Source: a virus. From it: a stretch of 64,000 nucleotides of DNA. Position numbers and translations under genes: made by a program. The stretch is taken from UHGV virus genome UHGV-1351982, one strand, 5' to 3'. Positions 37,042 to 63,857 of the stretch are shown in pieces (positions within the stretch are counted from its first letter, which is position 1; the number at the start of each line of letters is the position of its first letter). The notes beneath the pieces were generated by a model. It did not search any database, had not been told where the DNA came from, and worked only from the letters and a program-made list of their open reading frames with translations.

Positions 37042-37099
37042 ATACTTATAAATTAAAGAGAAATAATAACTATAAGAAACTATCGGCTAAGTGAGAACC

Positions 37100-47463: not shown

Positions 47464-47492
47464 ATTATACAGAATTTTAAAGCTAAAAGCAA
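47464..47492 (-). promoter_or_regulatory. early promoter (TTGCTT-N17-TGTATAAT) with conserved leader
   Basis: Read on minus strand; leader TAAATTAATGAGAGAGAGG precedes ATG at 47429. Confidence 0.55.
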
Positions 47493-47509
47493 CTGAATTT
47501 TTTATTTAC

Positions 47510-47941
47510 TTACCAATCGTTAACGAAACCTGAGAACTCAGAAGCAAATACTAGCTCAAATTTCTCAGCAATTTCAGGATGATCTTTACAGATCAGTTCG
47601 ATACACTTCTCAGGTTCCATACCATCTTCTTCGGGGTCACCATAATACTTGTCCCAAAGATCGTCAGGAATAACTTGCTCAGCTAGATCTTGGAAGTTCA
47701 CTAACTGATAGCGTGGAGTATCCTCATTAATAAAGATCTCATGCAATTCCTCAGATACTTCTCCTTTATAATCGGAAATTAGCAGAGCATTGCAAGCAAA
47801 ACATTCCCACATCATCAAACGCTCAGAAATCGGGTTAGATTTGTCTTGAACATAGGACTGAAAGACTGCCTTAAAAGTAGCTTTAACTTGCTCAAACTTA
47901 TCTGCTGTTGCGATTAAAAGTGCTTTATCAATCTTTTGCAT
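47510..47941 (-). CDS. hypothetical protein (143 aa)
   Basis: ORF downstream of promoter 47971-48000. Confidence 0.45.
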   Translation of the reverse strand: MQKIDKALLIATADKFEQVKATFKAVFQSYVQDKSNPISERLMMWECFACNALLISDYKGEVSEELHEIFINEDTPRYQLVNFQDLAEQVIPDDLWDKYYGDPEEDGMEPEKCIELICKDHPEIAEKFELVFASEFSGFVNDW

Positions 47942-47970
47942 TTTGATTCCTTCTCATCAATTTATAAAGT

Positions 47971-48000
47971 ATATATACAGAAAACTAAGCGTTTTAGCAA
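47971..48000 (-). promoter_or_regulatory. early promoter (TTGCTA-N18-TATATA)
   Basis: Minus strand; leader TTTATAAATTGATGAGAAGG precedes ATG at 47941. Confidence 0.5.
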
Positions 48001-48102
48001 ATGAAGTTTTAAAATAAAAGGCCTAAGCCTAGGCCTGTAAAGAAAGAGATAAGGACTACTATCCCTATTGCTATAAATAGCTCACGAGCCATTCCATCAA
48101 AA

Positions 48103-48687
48103 TCAAACATCATATACTCCCATCGCTAAATCTCCAGCATCAATTTCAGATACCACACCAGTTACAGGATCAACAATTTTATTCCACGTCTGAAACTTGC
48201 CAGATACAATATCCTCTAGAGGAATTGGAGTCTTACTCATCTCAAAGGAGACGTTGATATAGCGTTGGTCACGTACAGAATTAGTGTGCACGTGCCCGTG
48301 AATGTTCAGCTTACCCCGAAGTTCCTCTGGATGTAAAGGACAGTGAGATAGCCAAAACTTCTTGCCACCACCAGTCTGCTTACCTAGAGCTTGAATATCA
48401 TCATAAACGTCTACAAGATCTTTAATACGCAGACCCTGACGCTCAGCATCATGGTTGCCCATGATTAACTGGTTAGGCACGTTGTGGATAACCGACTTCA
48501 ATTTGGCCAATCCTTCACGTCCCACGGCACTATCTCCTAGCAGTACAAGTTTTGTACGCTTGCCAATGTGCTTGGACAAAGTATCCAGAATATATTCGTC
48601 ATGCTCTTTCATGTTCTTAAACCACGGACGGAAGCGAAGAGTTCCAGGGTGGTCTAAGTGCAACTCCGACCAGAATTTAACTTTCAT
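48103..48687 (-). CDS. metallophosphoesterase (calcineurin-like)
   Basis: Motifs LLGDSAVGR, IMGNHDAE, GHVH; 194 aa. Confidence 0.6.
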   Translation of the reverse strand: MKVKFWSELHLDHPGTLRFRPWFKNMKEHDEYILDTLSKHIGKRTKLVLLGDSAVGREGLAKLKSVIHNVPNQLIMGNHDAERQGLRIKDLVDVYDDIQALGKQTGGGKKFWLSHCPLHPEELRGKLNIHGHVHTNSVRDQRYINVSFEMSKTPIPLEDIVSGKFQTWNKIVDPVTGVVSEIDAGDLAMGVYDV

Positions 48688-48893
48688 TATTTATTCCTTA
48701 CACATGTGGATGTAATAGTTATGGTATCCCAGAATGGGCCTTTTGTGATCCCAATCTGGATACTAGAATTATCTAGTTTACCATTAGCCACATCGCATAG
48801 CTGTTTGGTATCTTCTGCGGTGAATCGCATACTATTATCATAAGGATTACATCCAGCTAACAGAAATATGGATAAGAATACCAGCTTTTTCAT
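48687..48893 (-). CDS. small lipoprotein (68 aa)
   Basis: Signal peptide with lipobox LLAGC. Confidence 0.4.
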   Translation of the reverse strand: MKKLVFLSIFLLAGCNPYDNSMRFTAEDTKQLCDVANGKLDNSSIQIGITKGPFWDTITITSTCVRNK

Positions 48894-48895
48894 TA

Positions 48896-49192
48896 CTACC
48901 TCTGTTTAGTTAACCAATACATATGGTGCTCATATTGATAGCGATTCCACTTATCTTTAAATTCATTCATATGATTAAAGATATGTTTGGCTAAATCGTT
49001 AGCATTCTCTAGTGTTTTAGCATAAAGTTTTACTGGTTCGCTATTTTCATATGAGATAATAATAAAGAGCCTATTATCTTCTTCAAATGAGGGGGATATA
49101 GATCGTATCCCCTCAACATCAATAAAGCCAGCCCAGCCTAGAGACTCAAAGTTACAATACTTAGTAATTGTTGGTATAATAGGTTTTTCCAT
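48896..49192 (-). CDS. hypothetical protein (98 aa)
   Basis: ORF. Confidence 0.4.
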   Translation of the reverse strand: MEKPIIPTITKYCNFESLGWAGFIDVEGIRSISPSFEEDNRLFIIISYENSEPVKLYAKTLENANDLAKHIFNHMNEFKDKWNRYQYEHHMYWLTKQR

Positions 49193-50070
49193 TACAGAAT
49201 CCTCTGTACACCACAGCTATCATTTTTGTCCGTGGTAAATGTCATAATCTTACCGGCTTCATCATTAACTTGCGCAACCGTCAACTGCCCGTTGAAAACA
49301 CCGCCAGTATCGAGATAAACACGGTTCTTGTACAGAATTGGGTAAGGAACACCAGTGTGACCATGGAATACGAAATCTACACTTTCAACTTCTGGTACTT
49401 CCACAGTCAATTCATCTTTAAATCCTGCATAACGCTGGAAATAGGGATGCTCTGCACCTTGCTTAGACAGATGAAAACCAATTTCCTGAATTACATCACG
49501 ATCCCACAGATACGGCTCAATGTAATAGCTAGGATGATCATTGGGATCATTTTCACTTGCAGCGATATGATCAATAATATCATCCCAATTAGGTGTATGT
49601 ACATCGAATCCAGCATCTTTATACTGAAACGGTATTCCGCCATGAACAACACCGTATTTCTTGCCACGATGGAGTACGGTCATGAATACAGGCATTTTAG
49701 CTGCCATATCTTCTGCGATACCTTTAATTGTATCGGTATCCAGATCATTCATTGCCCACATTCCACCATTATACATCCAGTTGGCGTAGTCACCAGCAAT
49801 CATAAACTGATCATGGTTGCCACGAACGCTACGGAAGCGTGGGTTATATAAGAATTTGGCTAGAACCTGTAAGTTCTGCGGGCCACGGTCGATCAGGTCG
49901 CCAACACAGACAACATAGTCACGCTTTTCTTTATACCCTGCTAGTTTAAGAGCATCTTCCAGCATATCATTACAGCCGTGAATATCTCCTACGAAGAACA
50001 GGTTAACATCATCTGGTACTACTAACATTTCGTGCAGGTTAAATTCTTTTTTCATTATCGAGTCATCCAA
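49192..50070 (-). CDS. Ser/Thr protein phosphatase (PPP-family, lambda-PPase-like)
   Basis: Motifs GDIHG, GDLIDRG, GNHD in canonical order; 292 aa. Confidence 0.7.
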   Translation of the reverse strand: MDDSIMKKEFNLHEMLVVPDDVNLFFVGDIHGCNDMLEDALKLAGYKEKRDYVVCVGDLIDRGPQNLQVLAKFLYNPRFRSVRGNHDQFMIAGDYANWMYNGGMWAMNDLDTDTIKGIAEDMAAKMPVFMTVLHRGKKYGVVHGGIPFQYKDAGFDVHTPNWDDIIDHIAASENDPNDHPSYYIEPYLWDRDVIQEIGFHLSKQGAEHPYFQRYAGFKDELTVEVPEVESVDFVFHGHTGVPYPILYKNRVYLDTGGVFNGQLTVAQVNDEAGKIMTFTTDKNDSCGVQRIL

Positions 50071-50435
50071 TTAGTGTGTTTTTCAGCTTCTGTATCGTTT
50101 GGCTCAAAGACAACGTGACAGTCTACTGCTTCCCAGAAAGATTGACGGATGATAGCATTTTGTTCTGCAATATCCAACTCTTCCCATTCTTCAAGTGTTT
50201 CTAGATCTGTATCAACTTCGGTATCACAGCCCACCAGCCCCAAAGTAACAACAATAGTAACACGGCCTTCACGTTCTTCGGGATAAGCCTCAGCATATTC
50301 CCAAGCAGCTTGCTCAACATAATATTCTTGCTCCTTTTCAGGCAGTGACTTATATTTTTCTTCTGTGATTCCCATTTCTACAGCACGAGTACCACAGACC
50401 ACGTTGTTATGTATTATAAGATATGCGTAATTCAA
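50055..50435 (-). CDS. hypothetical acidic protein (126 aa)
   Basis: ORF downstream of promoter 50467-50495. Confidence 0.4.
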   Translation of the reverse strand: MNYAYLIIHNNVVCGTRAVEMGITEEKYKSLPEKEQEYYVEQAAWEYAEAYPEEREGRVTIVVTLGLVGCDTEVDTDLETLEEWEELDIAEQNAIIRQSFWEAVDCHVVFEPNDTEAEKHTNWMTR

Positions 50436-50466
50436 TGTGATACTCCTCCCATCAATTTATACATAT

Positions 50467-50495
50467 ATTATATCAAAATTTTTAGCAGAAAGCAA
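50467..50495 (-). promoter_or_regulatory. early promoter (TTGCTT-N17-TATAAT)
   Basis: Minus strand; hexamers read directly. Confidence 0.55.
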
Positions 50496-50500
50496 GTAAT

Positions 50501-50528
50501 AAAAAAGCCTAGTCAGCTAAGACTAGGC
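50501..50528 (-). terminator. rho-independent terminator (GCCTAGTC-AGCTAA-GACTAGGC then U6)
   Basis: 8-bp stem; U-run on minus-strand RNA after thioredoxin-like gene. Confidence 0.55.
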
Positions 50529-50536
50529 TTTGGGTA

Positions 50537-50827
50537 TTAATCCTCTGGATTATCTTCCAGGAAGTTTTTGATTGCATCGTGCATAGTTTCTTTACGAAGC
50601 TGACGACCAATCAGAATGTGGTTGGCTTCCACACGACCATTCGGGAGACGATCTGCTAAAACTACTACAGGAACCTGACGAACGCCAAATTTCTGCATAA
50701 GTTCTGTGTTATCAGTCTCTTTATGAACTTCTAGACTGTAATCCTGTACTACTTTATCGAATACAGGCTCAAACATTTTGCATGGATTGCAGGTAGATCC
50801 CTTTAATAGATATACTAATTTACTCAT
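50537..50827 (-). CDS. thioredoxin/glutaredoxin-like protein
   Basis: 96 aa with CNPC active-site-like motif near N-terminus. Confidence 0.5.
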   Translation of the reverse strand: MSKLVYLLKGSTCNPCKMFEPVFDKVVQDYSLEVHKETDNTELMQKFGVRQVPVVVLADRLPNGRVEANHILIGRQLRKETMHDAIKNFLEDNPED

Positions 50828-51230
50828 GTTTATTAATGGCCTCCAAAAATGCCTTCATCACTTTAACAGTTGCAGTGCTAAGATCTAAGGTAGCACCTAA
50901 GCACTCAGATACAGCAGCCTGATAAGGGGCCTTTAGCCTGCCTTCCGGTACTTGTACTTTCTTATAGGTTTTCTTTTTGACTTTATCCAGCATCGTTTCA
51001 AGAACATTGAGAGGCAACTTCTGACCTTCAATATTCACGCCAAGCTCTTCCATTAGCATGGTATTTAAGTCAATACGAGTAAGTTTCTTGCCCTTGCTAG
51101 ACATACGAATTCCCGCCTTTTTCTCAAGTTTTGCACGCTCTGGTGAATCGAGGTCACGTAATGCGATGTTCAATTCATACGGAGCCATATTGTAATGGTT
51201 AGCCATCTGAGTATAGTAACGATCTGACAT
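50820..51230 (-). CDS. hypothetical protein (136 aa)
   Basis: ORF downstream of promoter 51264-51292. Confidence 0.4.
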   Translation of the reverse strand: MSDRYYTQMANHYNMAPYELNIALRDLDSPERAKLEKKAGIRMSSKGKKLTRIDLNTMLMEELGVNIEGQKLPLNVLETMLDKVKKKTYKKVQVPEGRLKAPYQAAVSECLGATLDLSTATVKVMKAFLEAINKHE

Positions 51231-51263
51231 TTGTGAAACTCCTCTGATTCAATTTATACAAAT

Positions 51264-51292
51264 ATTATATAAAAATTTCAGCGTAAAGTCAA
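51264..51292 (-). promoter_or_regulatory. early promoter (TTGACT-N17-TATAAT)
   Basis: Minus strand; leader TTTGTATAAATTGAATCAGAGG precedes ATG at 51230. Confidence 0.55.
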
Positions 51293-51305
51293 CTACTTTT
51301 TTATA

Positions 51306-51722
51306 TTAATGTGCTTGATGTGGGAATCTCTTCCTAACTAAGTACATTGTTATTGGATATATTGAATACATAAGTATAGGGGAGAAAAGGGTGAAATAAG
51401 CCGTGACTCCCCCAGCTAACATTAGTGGTATCAATGCTAGAGTAAGGGCCATAAGAATCATACCGAATGAGACAGCCAGGGCTACTGTGATGCAGTTCTC
51501 TAACTCCATCCAAAGCCAACAATATTTCGTATTCCTCTGGCAGTTGCATTTGCAAACGCCGAATGTGCCCATAATTATATACTCTAGCCCATGAACGACT
51601 TTCTTTAATGTATCATTTTGGGTAACTAGTGCGACAACAGTGAGAATTATCATTAAGATGAAAACTACTAGGCTTATTTTCCATATTCCTAGTAATATCA
51701 TAGTGAATAGTTCTGCAAACAT
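51306..51722 (-). CDS. integral membrane protein (138 aa)
   Basis: Multiple hydrophobic helices; next to endolysin/holin, so possibly a lysis accessory. Confidence 0.4.
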   Translation of the reverse strand: MFAELFTMILLGIWKISLVVFILMIILTVVALVTQNDTLKKVVHGLEYIIMGTFGVCKCNCQRNTKYCWLWMELENCITVALAVSFGMILMALTLALIPLMLAGGVTAYFTLFSPILMYSIYPITMYLVRKRFPHQAH

Positions 51723-51797
51723 GGCTTTCTCCTATCATTAAGTTTTTAAAGCCCCCTTTGCTTTAAAAGGCGGGAATTACCCCGCCTTGATTTATTA

Positions 51798-52211
51798 TCA
51801 GACTAATTCTACGTGACCACCGTCGTAAGTACCACGATCGATCTCATCATGATAATCACCAGAACTATTCCAGTCGGCACCAAAACGAAGTTTGACACCA
51901 AGTTCCTTACCCGCTTGTTCAAAAGCCTTCTTAACAGCCCAAAATGCTTCCAGATCTTTCCAATCAATCTTACCATTAATATATGGTGCAAAATCGATAG
52001 CGTCTCCAGTTACATGCTTACTTTTGCTAGGGTCTTTCAAGAATGAAGTACCATTAGCAATATTTTGGGCACTTTGTGCTACTGTACGAATACCCTGTAC
52101 GATTGTGAAATCATACGGGGATAATTCTAAAGCCCTACGAGCTACCTTCTGTAGCTCGGGCTTAACAGTTGCTAATTGTTTTTCGCTATTTTTACCAAAT
52201 TTAAAACTCAT
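51798..52211 (-). CDS. lys: endolysin, L-alanyl-D-glutamate peptidase (M15-type, T5 endolysin-like)
   Basis: 137 aa, same size as T5 endolysin; Zn-peptidase motifs HVTGDAIDF and DGGHVE. Confidence 0.75.
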   Translation of the reverse strand: MSFKFGKNSEKQLATVKPELQKVARRALELSPYDFTIVQGIRTVAQSAQNIANGTSFLKDPSKSKHVTGDAIDFAPYINGKIDWKDLEAFWAVKKAFEQAGKELGVKLRFGADWNSSGDYHDEIDRGTYDGGHVELV

Positions 52212-52864
52212 ATAGATCTACCTAATGATCTTTGCTGTGGTGAGCAAAGCTTTGTTAAGTACTCATTAAATTGTTCCGAGTCAGCTGTATCTACGGGTTT
52301 ATCCTTCCAGGCAATACCTATGTATCCAGCATAGATATTATTTAGGTTGAAATACGGACAAGTGTAGACGTAATTAAAAGTAACGTTCTTAAACGCGGGT
52401 ATATTTGACCCCATATATTTATTTACTTTTACACTTAAATCCGAAGCGTAGTTAAAGCCTTCCAGGTGACGTCTATAAAGTTCAGACGTCTTGTTTACTG
52501 CTTTATCGGCCAAGTCAGCCCTATCCAATTGCGCATTGCTTTCCCATGCAATAATGTTCGAATAATCGTTTATAGCATCGGGTTTATACTTGACTACAAA
52601 AACAGCATCCGCACCCGTCTGAGAGAAAAGAACCATACTCTTTTCTCGTGCTACATTAGGAAAGTTATCTATCCTTTGGGTTTGAACATCCTGTAAAACC
52701 GCAGACGTGGAGAAAGTCTTTAAAAATGACATCACCTCGCTAGTGTTACTTACAAACAAGAAAATAATGACAGCAACTAAGATAGTTAGCAGACGTTTTA
52801 GTAGCGAAGCTGGATCTTTCGCTTCTTGGAGCAGTACCGTTAATAGTTGTAGAAACTTTTCCAC
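52208..52864 (-). CDS. putative holin
   Basis: 218 aa with N-proximal TM helix LTILVAVIIFLFV; immediately upstream of and overlapping the endolysin. Confidence 0.5.
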   Translation of the reverse strand: MEKFLQLLTVLLQEAKDPASLLKRLLTILVAVIIFLFVSNTSEVMSFLKTFSTSAVLQDVQTQRIDNFPNVAREKSMVLFSQTGADAVFVVKYKPDAINDYSNIIAWESNAQLDRADLADKAVNKTSELYRRHLEGFNYASDLSVKVNKYMGSNIPAFKNVTFNYVYTCPYFNLNNIYAGYIGIAWKDKPVDTADSEQFNEYLTKLCSPQQRSLGRSI

Positions 52865-52980
52865 TTGTAACCTCCTCTAACCATTACCATTATACTAACT
52901 CTAGAGGAAAATTACAATGTGTTTTTAAAGTTCACTTCTGGAGCACAATTTTTTGTCGTTGTCAAGAAGAATTTTAGGCA

Positions 52981-53010: not shown

Positions 53011-53020
53011 TTAAAACTAC

Positions 53021-55117: not shown

Positions 55118-55772
55118 GTGCTGCTAACCTGTCTTTATCTGATACGGTAATCATATCAGGCTCACCAGTTCCTAGTACACCGAAGATATACTGTTCGAGA
55201 ACTTGGTGTAAACGGTATAAGTTACTTTCAATTTCCTGCCACGGAATACCTGACTGGTGGAAACGAATGTTTGTCTGAATTACGAAGTTACGAACATCAT
55301 CGTTATCGTTCTTCTTAATACCTTTCACATACGCAATTGGTACGCGCAGTTCAGATAAGATACGTTCTGCTTTAGGTTTTGCTTCAACCAACATATCTCG
55401 CATGGTTTCACGAACATCACCACGATTCTTATCTAGTAAGTAAGAACGGGCATGTAATCCCATTTCTTCCATTTTATCAAATACAGCATCGATGTTGAAC
55501 GTTTTGAAACTGAATGCCGGATGCCAGCAGGACAGCTCATGTAACCAGTAAACTTCACCTGCAATAAATAGCGGATTTACTGAGTATTCGAAATCACCAC
55601 GGAAGGATAAGGAACCCTCACGAAACACCTGACGATTATGAACGATATTCTTTTCTACATCGTCAGTTACTTTTACCAGCAGCTCTTCAGTTTTACGCTC
55701 CCAGACACGATCTGGATCAAATAAACTATTCTGCAAATCGTATACATCATTGAACTTTGAAATGATTCTCAT
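55074..55772 (-). CDS. hypothetical protein (232 aa)
   Basis: ORF downstream of promoter 55804-55832. Confidence 0.45.
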   Translation of the reverse strand: MRIISKFNDVYDLQNSLFDPDRVWERKTEELLVKVTDDVEKNIVHNRQVFREGSLSFRGDFEYSVNPLFIAGEVYWLHELSCWHPAFSFKTFNIDAVFDKMEEMGLHARSYLLDKNRGDVRETMRDMLVEAKPKAERILSELRVPIAYVKGIKKNDNDDVRNFVIQTNIRFHQSGIPWQEIESNLYRLHQVLEQYIFGVLGTGEPDMITVSDKDRLAAHGFDTKTSFRNMAR

Positions 55773-55803
55773 AAATTATCCTTTTGCCTCAATCTATAAA
55801 CAT

Positions 55804-55832
55804 ATTATACAATACTTGTGGCATCTGAGCAA
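55804..55832 (-). promoter_or_regulatory. early promoter (TTGCTC-N17-TGTATAAT)
   Basis: Minus strand; hexamers read directly. Confidence 0.5.
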
Positions 55833-57621: not shown

Positions 57622-57895
57622 AATGCAACTCTCTTAGTTTATTCGTGATAGCCTGTAGTACGCCTTCTCGACTAGTATCTATAGTTACACCGATAGAGTC
57701 TCCAGTCACATACACTTTACACCTATTAGGGCCTTCACTAATTATTAATGCCACTGTAGTTATATTTATAGAACAGTCCTTATAATTAGAAGTTCTAAAG
57801 GTAACGAAAGGAGAACAGAAATTACTCATCTTCATCATCCTCCTTACAGTCACGGCATACATCATAATCATTGAAAGAATGTTCGTGAGCTTCAC
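57614..57895 (-). CDS. hypothetical protein (93 aa)
   Basis: ORF. Confidence 0.35.
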   Translation of the reverse strand: MKLTNILSMIMMYAVTVRRMMKMSNFCSPFVTFRTSNYKDCSINITTVALIISEGPNRCKVYVTGDSIGVTIDTSREGVLQAITNKLRELHYA

Positions 57896-58103
57896 ACCAC
57901 CAAGAACAAGAATCGCACAAGAAAATTTCTGTTTTCTCTATTGCCTGTCCAAGCAGTTCGTCTGCTTCATCTTCTGTGATTTTCAAACTACAAACATCAG
58001 CAATACGTTTAACAATCATTCTGCCTGCTTCATGATAGGACATACAAGTCCCAGCAACATCATGCTCAAGAACATGGACAGCGCAGTCTAAGCGAGTTTT
58101 CAT
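57822..58103 (-). CDS. Cys-rich small protein (93 aa)
   Basis: CDSCSWWC..CRDC motifs; first ORF after promoter 58134-58161. Confidence 0.4.
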   Translation of the reverse strand: MKTRLDCAVHVLEHDVAGTCMSYHEAGRMIVKRIADVCSLKITEDEADELLGQAIEKTEIFLCDSCSWWCEAHEHSFNDYDVCRDCKEDDEDE

Positions 58104-58133
58104 TTCAAAGCCCTCTCATCAATTTATATAAAT

Positions 58134-58161
58134 ATTATATCAAGAAAAGAGGGTTTTAGCA
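58134..58161 (-). promoter_or_regulatory. early promoter (TTGCTA-N17-TGATATAAT) with conserved leader ATAAATTGATGAGAGG
   Basis: Minus strand; leader nearly identical to the plus-strand one at 153-172. Confidence 0.55.
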
Positions 58162-58179
58162 AATGAATTATTTACGAAA

Positions 58180-58575: not shown

Positions 58576-58633
58576 ATTACCTCCATTAAGTCTTTTAAAT
58601 TAACTTAATGTGGGCGAACTTCAAAATATAACA

Positions 58634-58819: not shown

Positions 58820-58885
58820 TTTGAAAATCCTGCGTATATAAGAAAACCCCAGACTACTTATTCAATAGCTGGGGTTTATTATTAA

Positions 58886-59185
58886 TTAGATAATTTCGAC
58901 AATATCCTGGGTTACAAACCCGTCGAATTCATCAGAGATACCACCTGTAAAGGTGATGCCCATAATCATTGCATCCATTTTTCTTATCTCCGATATTTTC
59001 ATGCCTGCTTTACTATTTTTATAGTATTTGCGAGGATTTCCACACATCCAACAAGAACAGATGCAAGGAGTGGTAGTGATAATGCCCAAACGTTTAGGAC
59101 TTTCCTCGTGTGGGAAGACTGTCCAATACTTTTTGCGATTGTTTTTCACACGTTGACGGTGATGACGCCTTAATGCTCTGTCCAC
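58886..59185 (-). CDS. Cys-cluster protein (99 aa)
   Basis: TPCICSCWMCGNPRK metal-binding-like cluster; directly downstream of the GrcA-like gene. Confidence 0.4.
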   Translation of the reverse strand: MDRALRRHHRQRVKNNRKKYWTVFPHEESPKRLGIITTTPCICSCWMCGNPRKYYKNSKAGMKISEIRKMDAMIMGITFTGGISDEFDGFVTQDIVEII

Positions 59186-59266
59186 TAAGTTCTCCTAAAA
59201 CTTGGGAGATAAATGGAGTTTGCTCGACTACTTTGCGTAGCTGGGAGAAATCGTATCCAAACCCCA

Positions 59267-59635
59267 TTATATCGCCTGAGTAAATGTACGACTAATAACG
59301 TCGTTCTGTTGTTCACGCGTCAGTGCATTAAATCGAACAGCATAGCCAGAGACACGAATGGTCAACTGAGGGTATTTTTCAGGATGTTTCTGTGCATCCA
59401 AAAGCTGATCACGACTTAACACATTGACATTTAGGTGCTGACCGCCCTCGACCTGAGGAACTACTTCAACATCTACGATGCGAAAGGCTTCAGGATCAAA
59501 GTGAGGTGTGATACCTTCTAGATCTTCAACTAGAACTTTTTGTTTAAGTTCACCATCTTTAGAGTATAATTGAATGATCTGATTGTCATGAACAAGGTTA
59601 ATTACGCCGGATTTAAGGTTTTGGTATGCTTTCAT
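59267..59635 (-). CDS. grcA: autonomous glycyl radical cofactor (GrcA/YfiD-like)
   Basis: 122 aa; C-terminal [12 protein letters not shown]...[33 protein letters not shown] matches my recollection of E. coli GrcA including glycyl-radical signature RVSGYAV. Confidence 0.75.
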
Positions 59636-59818
59636 TAGATCTCCCTGATGTTAGAATTTGGCTCAGCTTTTTGTTAACCCAGAAGCAAGATAAAAACTGG
59701 GAGGCAGGCTGTTTATTAAGTGAATACCCGATAATCGCTCGTAGTCCGGCTTGTGGATTGATAGTCCCATTCAGTTTAATAAACACAGAGATCTGGCACA
59801 AAGGCCTGATCTTATCTT

Positions 59819-59894
59819 TGGTAGTTAGTAGTGGATTTGAACCACTGTAGTCGCTCCGTATGAAGGAGGTGCATAACCTCTCTGCCAACTAACT
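59819..59894 (-). tRNA. tRNA, anticodon CAU (Met or Ile2), encoded CCA
   Basis: Manual fold: acceptor AGTTAGT/ACTAACT, T-arm AGTGG-TTCAAAT-CCACT, anticodon loop TTCATAC. Confidence 0.5.
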
Positions 59895-59990
59895 ATTATG
59901 TTTTACTAGACTAAGTAAGTATTCTTTATACTCTTTAGACCAATTAGCTTTTTTAAACTTTCCTGGACGCATAGTCTTACTTCCTAAATT

Positions 59991-60067
59991 TGGTACTCCG
60001 GGAGGGATTTAAACCCCCGATCTCTCGGTTATCAGCCGAGTGCTTTAGATCGCTAAGCTACCGAAGC
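59991..60067 (-). tRNA. tRNA-Ile (GAU), encoded CCA
   Basis: Manual fold: anticodon arm CTCGG-CTGATAA-CCGAG, T-loop TTTAAAT, acceptor GCTTCGG/CCGGAGT. Confidence 0.55.
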
Positions 60068-60068
60068 A

Positions 60069-60275
60069 TTAACATTTAATTGCAGAACGTTTACCATTTC
60101 TAGGCGCACCTGGAAGTCGTGCACGTTCTGCCATTCTTCGCTTAATCTTTGAGATATTTTCTAGTGTTTGTTCTTCAGGCTTAATACCTGAAACACTACA
60201 CCACTGATTACCATCCCATGCGGTAATGATCATAACACCATTGCCCATAATCTTTTCTGTGAAAGTAATTCTCAT
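60069..60275 (-). CDS. hypothetical small protein (68 aa)
   Basis: ORF between tRNAs. Confidence 0.35.
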   Translation of the reverse strand: MRITFTEKIMGNGVMIITAWDGNQWCSVSGIKPEEQTLENISKIKRRMAERARLPGAPRNGKRSAIKC

Positions 60276-60568
60276 TATAACAACTCGTCTAAGTAAGAGG
60301 TATACTGGTATTTAGCTTCACCAGTTTTATCTACTTCGACTTCTGTTCTAGGTACTTTTCGTACCAGACCGTGAATCATCTTATATTGAATAGATTTAGA
60401 TGGTTCGTGATCTTTAGGAAAGACCTGCTTAACTGTAACTACTTTAAATCCCTCACGTGGTGTTAGTACAACAACTTGATCACCTTCTTTGATTTTCCAA
60501 GACTCAGGAAATTCATAAGTGTAGCGTTGACCACCGGTAAGGAATATAACAGAAAGATAACGTTTCAT
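60275..60568 (-). CDS. hypothetical protein (97 aa)
   Basis: ORF after promoter and leader. Confidence 0.4.
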   Translation of the reverse strand: MKRYLSVIFLTGGQRYTYEFPESWKIKEGDQVVVLTPREGFKVVTVKQVFPKDHEPSKSIQYKMIHGLVRKVPRTEVEVDKTGEAKYQYTSYLDELL

Positions 60569-60598
60569 TTGGTTTTCCTCTCATTAATTTATATAAAC

Positions 60599-60627
60599 AT
60601 TATATCAAGAAATAAGAGGAAAGGCAA
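60599..60627 (-). promoter_or_regulatory. early promoter (TTGCCT-N17-TGATATAAT)
   Basis: Minus strand; conserved leader before ATG at 60568. Confidence 0.5.
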
Positions 60628-60642
60628 ATGAATTTTTAAATT

Positions 60643-60717
60643 TGGTGCTCCCACCAGGAATCGAACCCGGTTCAGATGCTTACAAGGCAACTGCATCGCC
60701 AGCAATGCTTTAGGAGC
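60643..60717 (-). tRNA. tRNA-Thr (UGU), encoded CCA
   Basis: Manual fold: D-stem GCAT/ATGC, anticodon loop CTTGTAA, T-arm CCGGG-TTCGATT-CCTGG. Confidence 0.55.
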
Positions 60718-60884
60718 AATAAACCCGTTATTTCAACGGGATTTCTTTTTCAAATACAGGAGACTTATCAGACATTACTGTCATAGCCAACTGCTGTAGA
60801 AATTCGAATGAGAGTTTTAAACGTTCTTCGCCCAACTCAACCTCAACGCGCTTCATTCGTTTATCTACCTTTATCTTTAGATTA

Positions 60885-61106
60885 TCAGCCATCTTCGGGT
60901 TCTCTTTGCTCAGCTATTGCTAGCCAGTCTGGTAAAAGAAACTTAGTACGAAATTCTTCATATGTTTCTTCCGGATGAAAGCTATAGCCTTGCTTTTCAT
61001 CATTTAATAAAACCGAACCGTCTTCCTGCTCATAAGCTCGGTATGTTTCACCAATAATTAAAACTCGCCTATTAGGATTTTTATTACGAAACTCAAAAAC
61101 GTCCAT
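60885..61106 (-). CDS. hypothetical small protein (73 aa)
   Basis: ORF between tRNAs. Confidence 0.35.
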   Translation of the reverse strand: MDVFEFRNKNPNRRVLIIGETYRAYEQEDGSVLLNDEKQGYSFHPEETYEEFRTKFLLPDWLAIAEQREPEDG

Positions 61107-61121
61107 AACGTTTCCTTAAAT

Positions 61122-61196
61122 TGGTGCGGGATACGAGAGTCGAACTCGTGTCTACTGGTTGGAAGCCAGTTATTCTAGCCACTGAACTAATCACGC
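61122..61196 (-). tRNA. tRNA-Gly (UCC), encoded CCA
   Basis: Manual fold: anticodon arm ACTGG-CTTCCAA-CCAGT, T-arm ACGAG-TTCGACT-CTCGT. Confidence 0.6.
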
Positions 61197-61203
61197 ATTC
61201 GTT

Positions 61204-61279
61204 TGGCTGGAGAAGGAGGAATCGAACCTACCATTAACGGAGTCAAAGGCCGTTGTGCTAACCATTACACTACTCTCCA
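61204..61279 (-). tRNA. tRNA-Gln (UUG), encoded CCA
   Basis: U1-A72 pair and G73 as in E. coli tRNA-Gln; anticodon loop CTTTGAC. Confidence 0.5.
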
Positions 61280-61285
61280 AGTATT

Positions 61286-61361
61286 TGGCTGGGATGCCAC
61301 GGATCGAACGTGGAACCTTCGGAGTCAGAGGCCGACGATCTGCCAATTGATCTACATCCCA
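61286..61361 (-). tRNA. tRNA-Gln (CUG), encoded CCA
   Basis: U1-A72, G73; anticodon loop CTCTGAC; T-arm CCACG-TTCGATC-CGTGG. Confidence 0.5.
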
Positions 61362-61369
61362 ATAATTTT

Positions 61370-61570
61370 TTATTCTTCAGGAACCGTGGCTATTGGATCT
61401 GGTTCTTCTAGACGTTTACCATTATGATCGACACGAATAATGCCACAACCTTCACAGATTACAACAGCACCATAGCCTTCTTTAACTTCGGCTTCTGTAA
61501 TCAGACCAGATAAATCACCAGTATCTTTGCCCCACATATCAATAGAGCATTCTTTGCAGAAATCAGCCAT
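61370..61570 (-). CDS. small zinc-ribbon-like protein (66 aa)
   Basis: CKEC ... CEGC paired Cys motifs. Confidence 0.4.
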   Translation of the reverse strand: MADFCKECSIDMWGKDTGDLSGLITEAEVKEGYGAVVICEGCGIIRVDHNGKRLEEPDPIATVPEE

Positions 61571-61594
61571 ATTTTAGTTCCTGTATAAGTTAAT

Positions 61595-61669
61595 TGGTGC
61601 ATCCTCAGGGAATCGAACCCCGATCGTAAAGTTCGTAGCTTTACATTCTTTCCGTTGAAATAAGGACGC
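61595..61669 (-). tRNA. tRNA-Arg (ACG), encoded CCA
   Basis: Manual fold: anticodon arm TAAAG-CTACGAA-CTTTA, acceptor GCGTCCT/AGGATGC. Confidence 0.5.
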
Positions 61670-61675
61670 AATATT

Positions 61676-61752
61676 TGGGGTGGCTAGTGGAATTCGAATC
61701 CACATAGGCCTGATTCACAATCAGGATCATTAACCAATTATGATATAGCCAC
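61676..61752 (-). tRNA. tRNA-His (GUG), encoded CCA
   Basis: Manual fold: D-stem TCAT/ATGA, anticodon arm CCTGA-TTGTGAA-TCAGG, T-arm GTGGA-TTCGAAT-TCCAC, C73. Confidence 0.6.
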
Positions 61753-62116
61753 AATTGAAAACCATTGAGGAGTAGCGAACTCTCTACACTAGAAGCTTGC
61801 ATGCTCATACCTAGTGATTAGACCTAGCAAATAGGCGCTACAAGTAACGACCCTAAGTGGTAGACTCAAACAGACAATGATTTTCAATTGTGGCGGCTCT
61901 CCGAAACTCATCACACTAACAACTAGTTGATTACTTCTGGATTCTCGCCCAGAAAATTCTCTAGAAAGGTGCACCGTTACTCTTTGAGCCATTGATGATG
62001 GGATGGTCTCTCATCCCCACTAACTACTTAATCCTTACGATTCGTCGGTTAGCACGAGCAGCAACCCTTCATATATAATTTATAGTGCCCAGAAGGTCAT
62101 TAGAAGCACTTTATCA

Positions 62117-62246
62117 AGAAGTAGAAGGACTCGAACCTTCAAGAGATAGACCATTTATCTCAGCCTCGTTTTCGGGTATCTTATGAGGAGTGGATGTTCC
62201 CCTTACGCCCTTTAGGAAGCCCCGTCTACCGATTCCGGCATACTTC
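62117..62246 (-). ncRNA. tRNA-like structured RNA (about 130 nt; T-arm and acceptor pairing but no canonical cloverleaf)
   Basis: GAAGG-TTCGAGT-CCTTC T-arm, acceptor-like pairing GAAGTAT/CTACTTC about 115 nt apart, internal 6-bp hairpin GAGATA-AATGGTC-TATCTC; no long ORF. Confidence 0.3.
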
Positions 62247-62255
62247 AAGAATTAT

Positions 62256-62459
62256 TTAAAACTTGTAACCTTTGGGAACCTTATCTTTAACACCGATATA
62301 CTCAGCTTGGATGTAGTATGTTGGCACATGATCTTTAGGTAGATCTTTATTTACATCATTAACTTCCATCAAGGCTTCGGCCTCGGTGTCAAATGGGCGA
62401 TACCAGATTTCACCACCCCAGCCACGTTCACTTTCAGTATACTTAACAATGTGTTTCAT
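62256..62459 (-). CDS. hypothetical small protein (start trimmed to MKHIVKY)
   Basis: ORF-track start at 62510 would overlap tRNA-Ser; internal Met at 62459 has upstream AGGAAAAC. Confidence 0.35.
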   Translation of the reverse strand: MKHIVKYTESERGWGGEIWYRPFDTEAEALMEVNDVNKDLPKDHVPTYYIQAEYIGVKDKVPKGYKF

Positions 62460-62477
62460 AAGGTTTTCCTTATTAGT

Positions 62478-62567
62478 TGGAGGAAGGTAATGGAGTCGAA
62501 CCATCACCATATCGCTACAGCGGGCAGGTTTTCAAGACCTGTTACATACCACTATGTCCTACCTTCC
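62478..62567 (-). tRNA. tRNA-Ser (UGA), type II with long variable arm, encoded CCA
   Basis: Perfect acceptor GGAAGGT/ACCTTCC, anticodon arm CAGGT-CTTGAAA-ACCTG, variable hairpin CGCT-GT-AGCG. Confidence 0.6.
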
Positions 62568-62794
62568 AGTATTTGTTCTACTTCTTTGCGTAGATCTTCT
62601 GGATTATCATGATAGGTTGTTTGCCATACATAAATAACCCCGGCATCACATGCTTTATCAAAGATTTCTCGCTCAGGAAGTTTCATCCCCATTGCATACT
62701 TGATATGTAACTCTAGAGCTTGCTTACTAGGGAATGTATGACGCAAGAAAAACTTATCATTAGCTAAATCCAACATCATAATTTTGACTTTCAT
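62552..62794 (-). CDS. hypothetical small protein (80 aa)
   Basis: ORF; 3' end overlaps tRNA-Ser 5' end by about 16 nt. Confidence 0.35.
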   Translation of the reverse strand: MKVKIMMLDLANDKFFLRHTFPSKQALELHIKYAMGMKLPEREIFDKACDAGVIYVWQTTYHDNPEDLRKEVEQILEGRT

Positions 62795-62815
62795 TTATAT
62801 CCCCTATTAGTTGTT

Positions 62816-62907
62816 TGGCGGAAGAAGAGAGATTCGAACTCTCAAGCCTGCTTTCACAAGTCAGCCACTTTCCAAGCGGTTTTCGTCACCTATCGATTTG
62901 CTCTTCC
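62816..62907 (-). tRNA. type II tRNA, probably tRNA-Ser (GGA), encoded CCA
   Basis: Acceptor GGAAGAG/TTCTTCC, T-arm GAGAG-TTCGAAT-CTCTC, candidate anticodon loop TTGGAAA; D-arm atypical. Confidence 0.4.
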
Positions 62908-63081
62908 GTAGATCTCAGGATTAAATCATAAACTTCATTAGCGGATACTGGAAGTATGAGATTATACATCTTTTGGTCATACCTCTGACCATACTCTATA
63001 AACACATACTCTTTAGTTAATGTATTAACAGCTAACCAGATATCAGTTATAGGAGTTTTCATCATGAGTTAATCTAATGTT

Positions 63082-63162
63082 TGGTAGGGATGGAGGGACT
63101 CGAACCCACACCCGAAGACTAGAACCTAAATCTAGCGCGTCTGCCAATTTCGCCACATCCCC
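63082..63162 (-). tRNA. tRNA-Leu (UAG), encoded CCA
   Basis: Anticodon arm CTAGA-TTTAGGT-TCTAG, extended variable arm, acceptor GGGGATG/CATCCCT. Confidence 0.5.
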
Positions 63163-63169
63163 ATTTTAT

Positions 63170-63388
63170 TTAGTTAGAAATAAATAATAATCCCGCAACA
63201 ATGGAACCTACGCCACTGAATACCATTATCAGCATAGCTTCTAAGCTGATAAAGCGGACAGTATATGGAGCGCCCCAAGAATAATCAGTAAAGAAAGTTT
63301 TCTTTTCTTTAGCTAAATCTTTAACAGTTCTAAAATAGATAGCTAGTGCTAAAGCTGCAAGAACTACAGAGGCTGCTAAGAATACCAT
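63170..63388 (-). CDS. small membrane protein (72 aa)
   Basis: Two hydrophobic helices. Confidence 0.35.
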   Translation of the reverse strand: MVFLAASVVLAALALAIYFRTVKDLAKEKKTFFTDYSWGAPYTVRFISLEAMLIMVFSGVGSIVAGLLFISN

Positions 63389-63407
63389 ATTATTTCCTTA
63401 ATTTGTT

Positions 63408-63483
63408 TGGTGGAGTCACTCAGAATTGAACTGAGTTCCACTGCTTGCAAGGCAGTAAGTTTAACCAAATAACCTATGACCCC
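63408..63483 (-). tRNA. tRNA-Cys (GCA), encoded CCA
   Basis: Anticodon arm ACTGC-CTTGCAA-GCAGT, T-arm CTCAG-TTCAATT-CTGAG. Confidence 0.6.
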
Positions 63484-63488
63484 GAATT

Positions 63489-63562
63489 TGGTGGAGAAAG
63501 AGGGAGTTGAACCCTCGTCTTCTGCGTGCAAAGCAGATGTTCTACCATTAAACTATATCCCC
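63489..63562 (-). tRNA. tRNA-Ala (UGC), encoded CCA
   Basis: Anticodon arm TCTGC-TTTGCAC-GCAGA, T-arm GAGGG-TTCAACT-CCCTC. Confidence 0.55.
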
Positions 63563-63824
63563 AAAATCTTTAAGTTTACTAAGGCTATTAGCTCGGTGTG
63601 CGTAATACCCTCGGCAATTAGCCATGCGAGGATACCCGCTCTCCACAAACCCGATACACTATTCAGTTGCCGCTGAATCTAGTGGACTAATCTAGAACTT
63701 CTTGCAAAGTATCCCCCGCCATTAGGGGTCTAATTGCAACCGTGCTTTTTGGCAGCCAGTCCTAGGTCGAGCTAATACCTTAGTGAACTTTGATGAGGAT
63801 TTCTCCTCATCAATTTATATAAAT

Positions 63825-63857
63825 ATTATAACAAGAAATTAAGCATCAAGCAAGTAC
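63825..63857 (-). promoter_or_regulatory. early promoter (TTGCTT-N17-TATAAT) reading into the leader and tRNA cluster
   Basis: Minus strand; conserved leader ATAAATTGATGAGGAG follows, but no ORF start. Confidence 0.5.

Follow-up and report, generated by a model that had tools for sequence, protein, structure and literature searches.

A stretch of 64,000 nucleotides of phage DNA, called the window below, repeats the same promoter and the same leader in front of transcription units on both strands. What is this module, and what is the role of the conserved leader downstream of its -10 hexamer? The source phage is T5-like (Epseptimavirus), with about 97% identity to EPS7, bastian and STK8t, the nucleotide range across Epseptimavirus genomes being 95-98%.

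Twelve copies of one promoter-leader cassette

The module was found 12 times within the 64-kb window, four times on the plus strand and eight times on the minus strand. It is composed, in this order, of an A-tract, a TTGCTT-like -35 hexamer, a 17-bp spacer, TATAAT, an AT-rich discriminator of 6 nt and then ATAAATTGATGAGAGG. A weight matrix of 63 columns (-47 to +16) was built solely from the 12 window copies. When the window was scanned with this matrix, as the sequence-only reading had proposed, 12 sites were recovered at 41-72 bits, the next best scoring 18 and 10 bits, whereas the best score in 20 shuffles was 7.5 bits. With leave-one-out matrices, the cassettes scored between 15.9 and 64.5 bits. 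The earlier count of at least 11 copies thus holds, the additional one being the weaker copy at 37013-37063, and the module was indeed present where it had been placed: allowing up to 3 mismatches, the 21-mer quoted in that reading was matched 5 times where 0.01 matches were expected. Scanning the region for the generic sigma-70 consensus gave 47 sites for 49 expected, which is not above chance; specificity resides in the whole cassette and not in the two hexamers.

The copies are listed below, from the start of the -35 hexamer to +16, together with two adjoining hairpins; the +1 positions are predicted by homology.

23-73, plus strand: cassette, T5 P31A orthologue (T5 site 75510, inside the P31A feature), upstream member of a tandem pair; 58.0 bits; +1 at 58; transcribed start ATAAATTTGAGAGAGA, of the PN25 type
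124-174, plus strand: cassette, T5 P31B orthologue; 49.1 bits; -35 TTGTCA with an 18-bp spacer, or TGTCAA with 17; +1 at 159, start codon at 180
30137-30187, plus strand: cassette ahead of the gene for the receptor-blocking lipoprotein (T5 llp orthologue); 66.9 bits; +1 at 30172, start codon at 30195
37013-37063, plus strand: weakest cassette; 41.4 bits, leave-one-out 15.9 bits
47442-47492, minus strand: cassette, orthologue of T5 promoter 16245-16319; 66.4 bits; +1 at 47457, start codon at 47429
47950-48000, minus strand: cassette, T5 P-F30 orthologue; 58.7 bits; -10 TATATA; +1 at 47965, start codon at 47941
48019-48036: terminator hairpin directly upstream of cassette 47950-48000
50445-50495, minus strand: cassette, orthologue of T5 promoter 18550-18624; 54.1 bits; +1 at 50460, TTG start at 50435
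50504-50531: intrinsic-terminator hairpin adjoining cassette 50445-50495 upstream, with compensatory stem changes among relatives
51242-51292, minus strand: cassette, orthologue of T5 promoter 19368-19442; 54.2 bits; -35 TTGACT; +1 at 51257, start codon at 51230
55782-55832, minus strand: cassette, orthologue of T5 promoter 24443-24517; 55.6 bits; +1 at 55797, start codon at 55772; variant transcribed start ATAGATTGAGGCAAAAGGA
58112-58162, minus strand: cassette, orthologue of T5 promoter 26722-26796; 71.6 bits; +1 at 58127, start codon at 58103
60577-60627, minus strand: cassette, T5 P11 orthologue; 68.7 bits; +1 at 60592, start codon at 60568 (ORF 60275-60568)
63803-63853, minus strand: cassette, T5 P13b orthologue (aligned with T5 feature 32001-32075); 60.6 bits; -35 TTGCTT at 63853-63848, TGT-TATAAT at 63830-63825, predicted +1 at 63818

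All 12 copies could be aligned without gaps, with TATAAT in 11 and TATATA in one. The -35 hexamer reads TTGCxx or TTGACT in nine copies, and TTGGCA, TTGTCA (18-bp spacer) and AGCCAA in one each. The 17-bp spacer described previously fits all 12 copies, if TGTCAA is taken as the -35 of 124-174 (18 bp with TTGTCA). However, the extended -10 TGnTATAAT, proposed as a general feature, was present in 5 of 12 only; in five others TG directly abuts TATAAT, which is the arrangement of T5 PN25, and two copies have neither. The A-rich block (consensus AAAA at -47 to -44) carries 1.1-1.3 bits of information per column and is replaced by the terminator T-run in cassette 50445-50495. The discriminators are AT-rich (ATATTT, ATTTAT, ATATGT, ATATAC and similar), whereas the holin promoter in the same region reads GGTAAT.

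The weakest copy, 37013-37063, has a poor -35 (AGCCAA) and lacks the TG, the Shine-Dalgarno and an ORF. It sits in a non-coding stretch of about 900 nt in the pre-early (terminal repeat) region and is conserved at T5 position 6075, where no promoter is annotated in T5; its activity is uncertain, and it may not be an active promoter.

Correspondence with the early promoters of T5

For 11 of the 12 cassettes, the T5 genome has an annotated promoter that is the orthologue by position. The earlier description of early promoters on both strands, with a fixed leader ending in a Shine-Dalgarno, is supported. The eight minus-strand cassettes are syntenic in seven relatives including T5. The counterpart of 30137-30187 is found in T5 at site 110392, inside feature 110349-110423 and upstream of lpp, and in bastian at site 11565, upstream of a 'receptor-blocking protein'.

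When the window-only matrix was applied to unique T5 sequence, 33 of the 35 sites obtained fell inside annotated promoter features (48 in T5), an overlap that is partly circular because most of these 48 features are sequence predictions with a similar consensus, only the named promoters having been found experimentally. All named T5 early promoters checked were matched, and the promoters recovered include PN25, PN26, PK28a, PH207, P11, P13a/b, P14a/b, P15a/b/c, P16-17, PD/E33 and P31A/B. Those missed were the pre-early PD/E20, PH22 and T5.011 promoters, the late PG25 and PJ5, and the holin promoter. The window matrix separates the T5 early promoters from the pre-early and late ones. For PH22, PJ5, PG25 and P15A, the temporal class was determined by primer extension, and an AT-rich (ATATT-type) discriminator has been described to separate T5 early from late promoters (PMC7472727).

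The T5 early promoters studied in the Bujard laboratory have in common with the window copies the A-rich block near -43, the TTGCTT-type -35, the 17-bp spacer, TATAAT, the AT-rich discriminator, the start at the A of ATAAATT, TTGA near +7 and the GAGAGG Shine-Dalgarno. In PN25, TATAATAGATTCAT covers -12 to +2, so that +1 is the A of ATAAATT; the same start is predicted for the window copies. PN25 itself lies outside the window, where copy 23-73 carries a PN25-type leader, ATAAATTTGAGAGAG. The commonest window leader is TTGATGAGAGG, compared with TTTGAGAGAGG in PN25; otherwise no difference of substance was seen. The pQE/pDS expression vectors use PN25 as their promoter, and the conserved +7 region of T5 promoters was reportedly noted already by Gentz and Bujard in 1985. 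The same cassette architecture was also found in the distant genus Priunavirus, though the remaining DNA could not be aligned. Judged by their sequence, the 12 copies are classical sigma-70 early promoters of T5, of the PN25 type defined by the Bujard laboratory. The module is a well-known strong T5-type early promoter with a standard short leader; its observation was correct, and is ordinary.

Conservation of the transcribed leader

The transcribed start reads ATAAATT in 11 copies and ATAGATT in one, followed near +7 by TTGA in 8 of 12 copies and TTAA in 4 of 12. A Shine-Dalgarno, claimed earlier to lie about 8 nt before an ATG, was present in 10 copies; its distance from the start codon is 5 to 8 nt, and one of the starts is TTG. 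The 5'UTR of these 10 copies measures 21-28 nt. The conserved leader thus combines the initially transcribed sequence with the Shine-Dalgarno, and the purine content from +1 to +20 is 0.65-0.80, compared with a background of 0.49-0.51 (sd 0.12).

Conservation was expressed as mean pairwise identity for eight cassettes in eight genomes. This value was 0.989 for the -10 hexamer, 0.978 for +1 to +7, 0.928 for the -35 hexamer, 0.919 for +8 to +16, 0.876 for the discriminator, 0.83 for the spacer and 0.70-0.73 for the flanks. Among orthologues, the leader from +1 to +7 is conserved to the same degree as the -10 hexamer.

Such likeness could also arise from mobile or recombining cassettes comparable to T4 PeSL, or from recent duplication or gene conversion, in the absence of any selection on the leader; this we hold to be very improbable. 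The genes behind a given cassette do differ between relatives, with homology ending exactly where the leader meets the start codon at window positions 50440 and 58098, and terminator hairpins adjoin two cassettes. However, only 38 of 445 homology-breakpoint clusters (8.5%) fell within -80 to +40 of the start site, an interval that makes up 5.5% of the sequence, and this share does not exceed what gene junctions in general would give. Furthermore, the copies are positionally stable in 8 of 8 genomes, conservation depends on the position, the spacer and A-tract varying more freely than +1 to +7, and the design is kept in genera without alignable flanks.

Away from promoters, the transcribed-start motif gave 2-7 matches per genome, against 2-5 in shuffles, although every genome has over 100 genes, each with a ribosome site of its own. 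The leader is thus tied to initiation and not to translation alone. Cassettes before non-coding genes retain +1 to +7, the GAGAGG part being reused or dropped; in T5 P15b, a promoter located 8 nt before a tRNA, ATAAATT is kept and the rest of the leader is lost.

RNA folding and the copy upstream of the tRNA cluster

The sequence-only reading had suggested a shared RNA structure in the leader. Upon folding, 10 of the 12 leaders were no better than shuffled sequences (z from -1.5 to +1.2), the first 20 nt being mostly unpaired, and an Rfam search of the leaders gave no family match. Strong hairpins were seen just downstream in two copies only, at 63790-63813 (z = -4.5) and 76-103 (z = -5.6). 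These two are what would favor a common fold acting as riboregulator, stabilizer or processing site on every early mRNA, but they are unlike in sequence and position: the leader forms an arm of the first, whereas the second lies after the leader. The folding z-scores already contradict such a fold, to which we give hardly any credence.

The first of these hairpins belongs to the copy at 63803-63853, behind which two structured elements were delineated:

63790-63813, minus strand: 5'-terminal hairpin, +6 to +29 of the P13b-type transcript, UUGAUGAGGA-GAAA-UCCUCAUCAA
63573-63789, minus strand: structured non-coding RNA, homologue of T5 'rna2H, stable RNA with unknown functions'

As stated previously, no ORF follows this cassette, which would drive the structured RNA and the tRNAs; the supposed 220-nt leader into the tRNA cluster, however, consists of the 5' hairpin and a discrete, highly structured gene for an RNA homologous to RNA2H. 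The hairpin (MFE -15.7 kcal/mol), which was also picked up by a hairpin scan, uses the leader itself as an arm, and relatives show G-U and compensatory variants. In the RNA at 63573-63789, a closing helix of 21 bp surrounds a core of several helices; its alifold consensus contains 63 pairs, 11 of them with compensatory changes, and its Rfam search gave no match. Homology rests on alignment with the T5 rna2H feature and with bastian, and on the same position between P13b and tRNA-Ala. The positions matching the mature ends of T5 RNA2H are about 63777 and 63583, and tRNA-Ala starts at 63562. RNA2H is known as a discrete stable RNA solely from the annotation of the T5 record (AY543070).

The P13b - RNA2H - tRNA unit of T5 shares with the window the promoter, the closing helix, the RNA core and the downstream tRNA-Ala, as well as the 5' hairpin, which has one mismatch in T5. 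In the window and a subset of relatives, the first internal hairpin is 22 nt longer than in T5 RNA2H and the second differs in sequence with its pairing kept.

A probable role of the transcribed start in promoter escape

The proposal of a signal downstream of the -10 that does more than bind RNA polymerase is in line with published results for PN25: there, the sequence from +3 to +20 alters productive transcription by a factor of about 10, acting on promoter escape (PMC12464699, PMC5961368). The PN25 anti-sequence yields one tenth of the full-length RNA and escapes slowly, the native sequence being described as evolved for fast escape (PMC12464699). According to Kammerer et al., as cited in PMC5961368, the in vivo effect of the PN25 transcribed region is more than 10-fold. 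By homology, an escape function may be extended to the window copies, bearing in mind that the measurements were made with PN25, which has a leader, ATAAATTTGAGAGAGG, slightly unlike the commonest one in the window. Escape together with the Shine-Dalgarno offers no obvious reason why the letters at +1 to +7 should be nearly invariant.

The leader in T4-like phages and a possible recognition site

The one unexpected result was the occurrence of an identical leader of 15-17 nt in uncultured marine T4-like phages, which are unrelated to the T5 group. There, it stands behind a different upstream half, GGTTAC occupying the discriminator position. In T4, no T5-type leader was found within the 51 kb scanned; T4 shares its host with T5. 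Escape and the Shine-Dalgarno do not account for this distribution, with an identical leader in the marine phages and none in the T4 sequence.

The early promoters of T4 and the promoter-early stem-loop (PeSL) cassettes of T4-type phages, reportedly described by Arbiol et al. in 2010, resemble the window copies: they too are strong promoters for sigma-70 that have an A-tract upstream and recur many times before short early units, sometimes near hairpins. T4 itself, however, has a GTTTAC-type -35 and varied transcribed starts, and the window cassettes, unlike the T4-type PeSL picture, are not enriched at recombination junctions.

In addition to their promoter function, the discriminator and leader might form a recognition site, as DNA, nascent RNA or mature RNA, for a factor setting the fate of early transcripts as a class. 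We regard such a site as possible but rather unlikely. The conservation of +1 to +7, equal to that of the -10 among orthologues and extending across genera, speaks in its favor, and the presence of the same leader behind a different upstream half in T4-like phages suggests a self-contained element; on the other side, no leader-binding factor is known. A 12-bp palindrome centered on the start site (ATTTAT-ATAAAT) in copies 58112-58162 and 63803-63853 would also suit a binding site, but is missing from most copies and from the T4-like group.

The candidate factors would be a translational repressor, sigma-70 itself, rebinding the -10-like TAAATT at +2 to +7 and causing a pause, or a phage early shut-off protein such as gp026, whose homologue was located in the window:

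45182-45640, minus strand: gp026 homologue (tblastn, 91% identity over 153 aa, E = 1.5e-95)

For sigma-70 rebinding, TAAATT (TAGATT in one copy) fits TAnnnT in 12 of 12 copies, a resemblance in sequence only to pause elements of the lambda PR' type; however, we know of no sigma-dependent promoter-proximal pause for PN25, despite decades of in vitro study. T5 gp026 binds RNA polymerase, is reported to weaken polymerase contact with the -5/+2 discriminator, lowering its affinity there, and to be needed for the early-to-late switch, the AT-rich discriminator being its proposed point of action (PMC7472727). This discriminator is common to the early promoters, which together with the 91%-identical protein argues for gp026. 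Its effects in vitro are weak, however, and its proposed target is the discriminator, in which the T4-like cassettes differ from those of the window.

Proposed working of the cassette

We consider it very probable that the 12 copies are early-class promoters for sigma-70 in a T5-like phage and that each is joined to a short 5'UTR of standard form, their early timing being assigned by homology. Following this model, the A-tract near -43 (UP-like), the TTGCTT-type -35, the 17-bp spacer and the perfect TATAAT would ensure very tight binding of the host RNA polymerase. After the AT-rich discriminator (ATATTT or ATTTAT) would come a purine-rich, weakly pairing transcribed start, A(+1)UAAAUUGAUGAGAGG, with three putative roles. 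It would fix the start site, it would permit fast polymerase escape from an otherwise escape-limited promoter, and its 3' part would serve as the Shine-Dalgarno of the unstructured 5'UTR. In the tRNA-cluster copy, the GAGAGG part is folded into the 5' hairpin, followed by the structured stable RNA and then by the tRNAs. With the Shine-Dalgarno placed in a short, unstructured 5'UTR, the first gene of each early unit would be translated immediately.

A promoter-leader cassette repeated in the window

When compared by megablast, the window was 95-98% identical to phages EPS7, bastian, SuperGirl and STK8t, and on this sequence similarity it is placed in the Demerecviridae, Markadamsvirinae, genus Epseptimavirus, among the T5-like phages. 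Its early region occupies the minus strand at 47-64 kb; phosphatases, thioredoxin, holin, endolysin and dNMP kinase are encoded there, and the tRNA cluster begins in it, with 13 tRNAs detected between 59.8 and 63.6 kb.

The sequence-only reading had claimed at least 11 copies of a promoter-leader cassette, and the 21-mer quoted there gave five matches at up to 3 mismatches, versus 0.01 expected. With the anchor TATAAT-N6-ATAAATT, 12 sites were collected and aligned without gaps, and a weight matrix covering -47 to +16 was built from them. In the matrix scan these 12 sites scored 41-72 bits, the next best sites 18 and 10, and the maximum of 20 shuffles was 7.5, which confirmed the claimed repetition; leave-one-out scores were 15.9-64.5 bits. 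Eight copies lie on the minus strand (47.4-63.9 kb) and four on the plus strand, namely the three already recognized and a weaker one at 37013-37063. Their consensus is AAAA-N6-TTGCTt-N17-TATAAT-ATnTnT-ATAAATTgAtGAGAgg. For 10 of the 12 copies, the start codon is found 21-28 nt past the inferred start site and is preceded, 5-8 nt upstream, by GAGG or GGAG. The extended -10 proposed as a general feature did not hold: TGnTATAAT occurs in 5/12 copies only, TG abuts the hexamer in five, as in the T5 early promoter PN25, and is missing from two. A generic sigma-70 scan returned 47 sites (49 expected) and caught 3/8 cassettes; such a scan cannot find these promoters because TTGCTT scores only 3/6 against TTGACA.

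The copies that map to named T5 promoters are listed below; five more map to unnamed ones.

Cassette copies orthologous to named T5 promoters
63803-63853, minus strand: P13b orthologue, with no ORF
60577-60627, minus strand: P11 orthologue
47950-48000, minus strand: P-F30 orthologue
23-73, plus strand: P31A orthologue, upstream member of a tandem pair
124-174, plus strand: P31B orthologue
30137-30187, plus strand: llp promoter orthologue

Several other elements were noted around the copies. A hairpin GUUUCGGAUU...AGUCCGAAGC at 76-103 (plus strand; -14 kcal/mol, z = -5.6), conserved in T5 and followed by no U-run, corresponds to +19 to +46 of the transcript from the P31A orthologue of the P31A/P31B tandem pair. 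Intrinsic terminators directly precede two cassettes (50504-50531 and 48019-48036); their stems show compensatory changes when relatives are compared. A perfect 12-bp palindrome, ATTTAT|ATAAAT, made of the discriminator and the first transcribed bases, is centred on the start site at 58121-58132 and 63812-63823 (minus strand), and a related GTTTAT|ATAAAT is found at 60586-60597; the palindrome is absent from the T4-like cassettes described below. Finally, the weakest copy is surrounded by a non-coding stretch of about 900 nt in which the motif TTATCCAC(A) is repeated, at about 36841, 37126 and 37177 (36841-37190, plus strand); these motifs fit the DnaA-box consensus TTATNCACA.

The cassette is the signature of the T5 early promoter class

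T5 early promoters have been textbook material since the 1980s and rank among the strongest for E. coli RNA polymerase. The T5 record AY543070 annotates 48 promoters, several under historical names from the Bujard and Ksenzenko laboratories. When the motif built from the window alone was scanned over the unique T5 sequence, 35 sites exceeded 12 bits, and 33 of them fell inside annotated promoter features, an overlap that is partly circular because most unnamed T5 features are predictions from a similar consensus. The matched promoters include PN25, PN26, PK28a, PH207, PD/E33, P11, P13a/b, P14a/b, P15a/b/c, P16-17 and P31A/B. Fifteen annotated promoters were missed, including the pre-early PD/E20, PH22 and T5.011 promoters, the late PG25 and PJ5, and the holin promoter. 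By primer extension in T5-infected cells, PH22 belongs to the pre-early class, P15A and Ppol to the early one, and PJ5 and PG25 to the late one (PMC7472727). Since the matrix separates early from pre-early and late promoters, the cassette is the signature of the T5 early class. The main difference between T5 early and late promoters is the discriminator, ATATT in early ones (Klimuk et al., PMC7472727).

A gene relevant to this class is also present in the window:
45182-45640, minus strand: gp026 homologue, 91% identical to T5 gp026
In T5, gp026 is a phage protein that binds RNA polymerase and reduces its affinity for the -5/+2 region, and it is required for the early-to-late switch (Klimuk et al., PMC7472727).

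The order of the eight minus-strand copies is kept in T5, HildyBeyeler, bastian, EPS7, 26175I, SmurfNell and CitS1, and genome-wide the cassette has 36 sites in bastian and 36 in T5, repeat included. Providencia phage PR1 (Priunavirus) shows the same design with ATAAATTGA or ATTGAATTGA starts, and the rest of its DNA does not align to the window; a BLAST search with the cassette also matched T5-like phages of Klebsiella, Vibrio, Serratia, Pantoea and Obesumbacterium. This feature has been described before, as the classical early promoters of T5 with the region downstream of them. A search for literature on the T5-like early-promoter consensus and on T5 stable RNAs gave nothing beyond PMC7472727.

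A separate promoter was noted before the holin/endolysin genes (52889-52917, minus strand). It reads TTGTAA-N17-TATAAT with discriminator GGTAAT and start GGTTAGAGGAGG, without the early-type downstream half, which fits a different temporal class.

The transcribed leader is tied to initiation

In PN25, TATAATAGATTCAT spans -12 to +2 (PMC7472727), so transcription starts at the A of ATAAATT. Thus, the leader corresponds to the initially transcribed sequence, and the entire 5'UTR consists of it and the Shine-Dalgarno. Among orthologues, mean pairwise identity was 0.989 for the -10 hexamer, 0.978 for +1 to +7, 0.928 for the -35 hexamer and 0.919 for +8 to +16, followed by the discriminator (0.876), the spacer (0.83) and the flanks (0.70-0.73).

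If the leader were a generic translation signal, it would be expected before internal genes as well. Internal ribosome sites number well over 100 in each of these genomes; promoter-less matches to the +1 to +16 matrix numbered 2 in the window, 7 in T5 and 5 in bastian, about the level of shuffled genomes (2-5), and this explanation was rejected. The leader is tied to initiation. ATAAATT is retained in copies before non-coding genes, and at T5 P15b, where the tRNA begins at +9, the GAGAGG part is lost. The same upstream half combined with a divergent transcribed start was found at 2 promoters in the window, 19 in T5 and 15 in bastian.

RNA structure had been put forward as one possible role of the leader. 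Folding of the mRNA leaders revealed no structure beyond chance (z -1.5 to +1.2), with the first 20 nt mostly unpaired, and the Rfam search returned tRNAs only. At P13b and P16-17 a complementary stretch further downstream pairs with the leader, giving a 5' hairpin. As only two unrelated hairpins among the 12 leaders exceeded chance, the P13b one (63790-63813) and that at 76-103, a shared fold was rejected.

Purines make up 65-80% of positions +1 to +20, versus 49-51% in the background. PN25 is rate-limited at escape, and with an 'anti' sequence at +3 to +20 about 10-fold less full-length RNA is made and the half-life of escape is longer; backtracking is disfavoured by purine-rich starts, and the native start has been described as evolved for fast escape (PMC12464699). 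In vivo effects of the PN25 transcribed region above 10-fold are credited to Kammerer et al. where PMC5961368 cites that work. The purine-rich, unstructured start observed here fits this published picture. Together with the match to the T5 early class, it bears out the main point of the sequence-only reading, early promoters with a functional transcribed region. In the searched full-text literature, the leader sequence was found only as a PN25 tool, and neither the exact-letter constraint on the transcribed start nor the same leader in an unrelated phage family is explained there.

The same leader in marine T4-like phages

The exact pattern TATAAT-N6-ATAAATTGATGAGAG was found in 111 IMG/VR stretches, against a chance expectation of about 0.25 by our own rough estimate, which assumes about 6e10 bases in IMG/VR. 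Fifty of these stretches are T5-like. The other 61, without similarity to T5, belong to uncultured marine T4-like phages (IMG/VR loci within L039-L147, e.g. L041:10956-11010, L049, L127 and L129). These phages have genes for gp32, RegA, a family-B DNA polymerase and a DnaB-like (gp41-type) helicase; in alignments their loci match the cyanophage region that holds the clamp loader and RegA, and the nearest isolate is phage C48C1 (156 kb), classified in Kyanoviridae.

The T4-like cassettes have a -35 of TTGACA or TTTACT type, TATAAT and a GGTTAC, GGGTAC or AGCTAC discriminator before the leader, as in TTGACA-N17-TATAAT-GGTTAC-ATAAATTGATGAGAGAG. The leader ATAAATTGATGAGAG(AG) precedes at least 19 different T4-like genes at the same distance from TATAAT and start codon. 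Furthermore, these loci hold 85 additional promoter-like sites outside the retrieval pattern, about 30 of which have a start of this kind (e.g. ATAAAGTCATGAGAGAGG, ATTGAATTGATAAAGAGAGAG; column consensus ataaa.TgA.ga).

The leader might represent a host-driven optimum of any strong early promoter of an E. coli phage. T4 shares its host with T5, yet in the 51 kb of T4 examined the leader was not found, and GTTTAC-type promoters have unrelated starts there. Therefore, the leader is not simply acquired by any strong early promoter in E. coli, and this explanation was rejected.

We give a rather low probability to the 15-17 nt leader AUAAAUUGAUGAGAG(AG) being a self-contained functional element, beyond a good escape sequence plus a ribosome site. 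That reading is suggested by the -10-like conservation in Demerecviridae and the letter-for-letter recurrence in T4-like phages, and also by the different -35 and discriminator of the latter and the lack of the leader in the 51 kb of T4. The pattern across families fits either horizontal transfer between unrelated families or convergence on a signal read by a conserved partner. In the case of convergence, the leader could be read by RNA polymerase while it begins to transcribe or pauses, by the 30S subunit or protein S1 at the 5' end, or by some phage factor that both families have.

The ORF-less copy precedes a structured RNA gene

The copy said to run through a 220-nt leader into the tRNA cluster indeed has no ORF, but this '220-nt leader' is a 5' hairpin followed by a structured RNA gene. 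A hairpin of 10 bp with a GNRA cap opens the transcript at +6 to +29 (63790-63813; -15.7 kcal/mol, z = -4.5). From +30 onwards there is homology to the T5 feature 'rna2H, stable RNA with unknown functions' (RNA2H).

RNA2H homologues
63573-63789, minus strand: structured RNA of about 195-217 nt between the promoter and tRNA-Ala (start 63562)
L002:21809-21980, and loci L001 and L009-L036: homologues elsewhere

The 27 distinct homologues from GenBank and IMG/VR have in common a 21-bp closing helix and a conserved core, and two internal hairpins vary in sequence and length with pairing kept. Of the 63 pairs in their consensus fold, 11 show compensatory changes. It is this homology and structure in the region before tRNA-Ala that identify it as a gene for a structured RNA. 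The homologue matched no Rfam family. A bacterial origin was rejected, as a search of 185,579 bacterial and archaeal genomes gave no exact match to the conserved core; 'Rad' of T5 was also rejected as the stable RNA, since 'Rad' is a protein. In the closing helix, the annotated T5 RNA ends (+42 and +213) face each other, offset by two base pairs, which is what RNase III cleavage would leave if these ends are accurately annotated.

Where the RNA2H homologue would be expected, between tRNA-Ala and the upstream promoter, a 264-nt protein gene is annotated in EPS7 (L009:16682-16945, labelled 'Rho-associated, coiled-coil containing protein kinase 2'), 26175I (L010:16726-16989) and HildyBeyeler (L013:15682-15945). 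No ORF of at least 40 aa was found on that strand at this position in the window, and the annotated genes are probably mis-annotations.

In some Tequintavirus relatives (HildyBeyeler and loci L014 and L020), a segment of about 80 nt, TGCCTAGATACCAGG...TCTGGTATCC, lies between the P13b-type promoter and the RNA2H homologue in place of the 5' hairpin.

Cassettes are conserved islands

At two cassettes, homology between the window and bastian ends precisely where the leader meets the start codon (50440 and 58098), and genes after the same cassette differ between phages. These breaks and the variable downstream genes suggested module shuffling at cassettes. When eight genomes were compared in all pairs, 445 breakpoint clusters were obtained, of which 38 fell within -80 to +40 of a start site, an interval representing 5.5% of the sequence. 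The two cases are not general, and cassettes as recombination junctions were rejected: they are conserved islands, not preferred junctions.

At these two conserved cassettes, the first gene or genes (50058-50440 and 57624-58098, minus strand) differ among the window phage, bastian and T5, with homology stopping within a few bases of the start codon.

Significance

For annotation, the matrix allows early transcription units to be detected specifically in T5-like genomes. Most of their GenBank records (e.g. bastian, EPS7) carry no promoter annotation, and in some a probably spurious protein is annotated over the RNA2H-like gene. These early promoters drive the phage tRNA region, which has been treated as an anti-defence region whose expression from a phage promoter matters (bioRxiv 10.1101/2023.03.15.532788).
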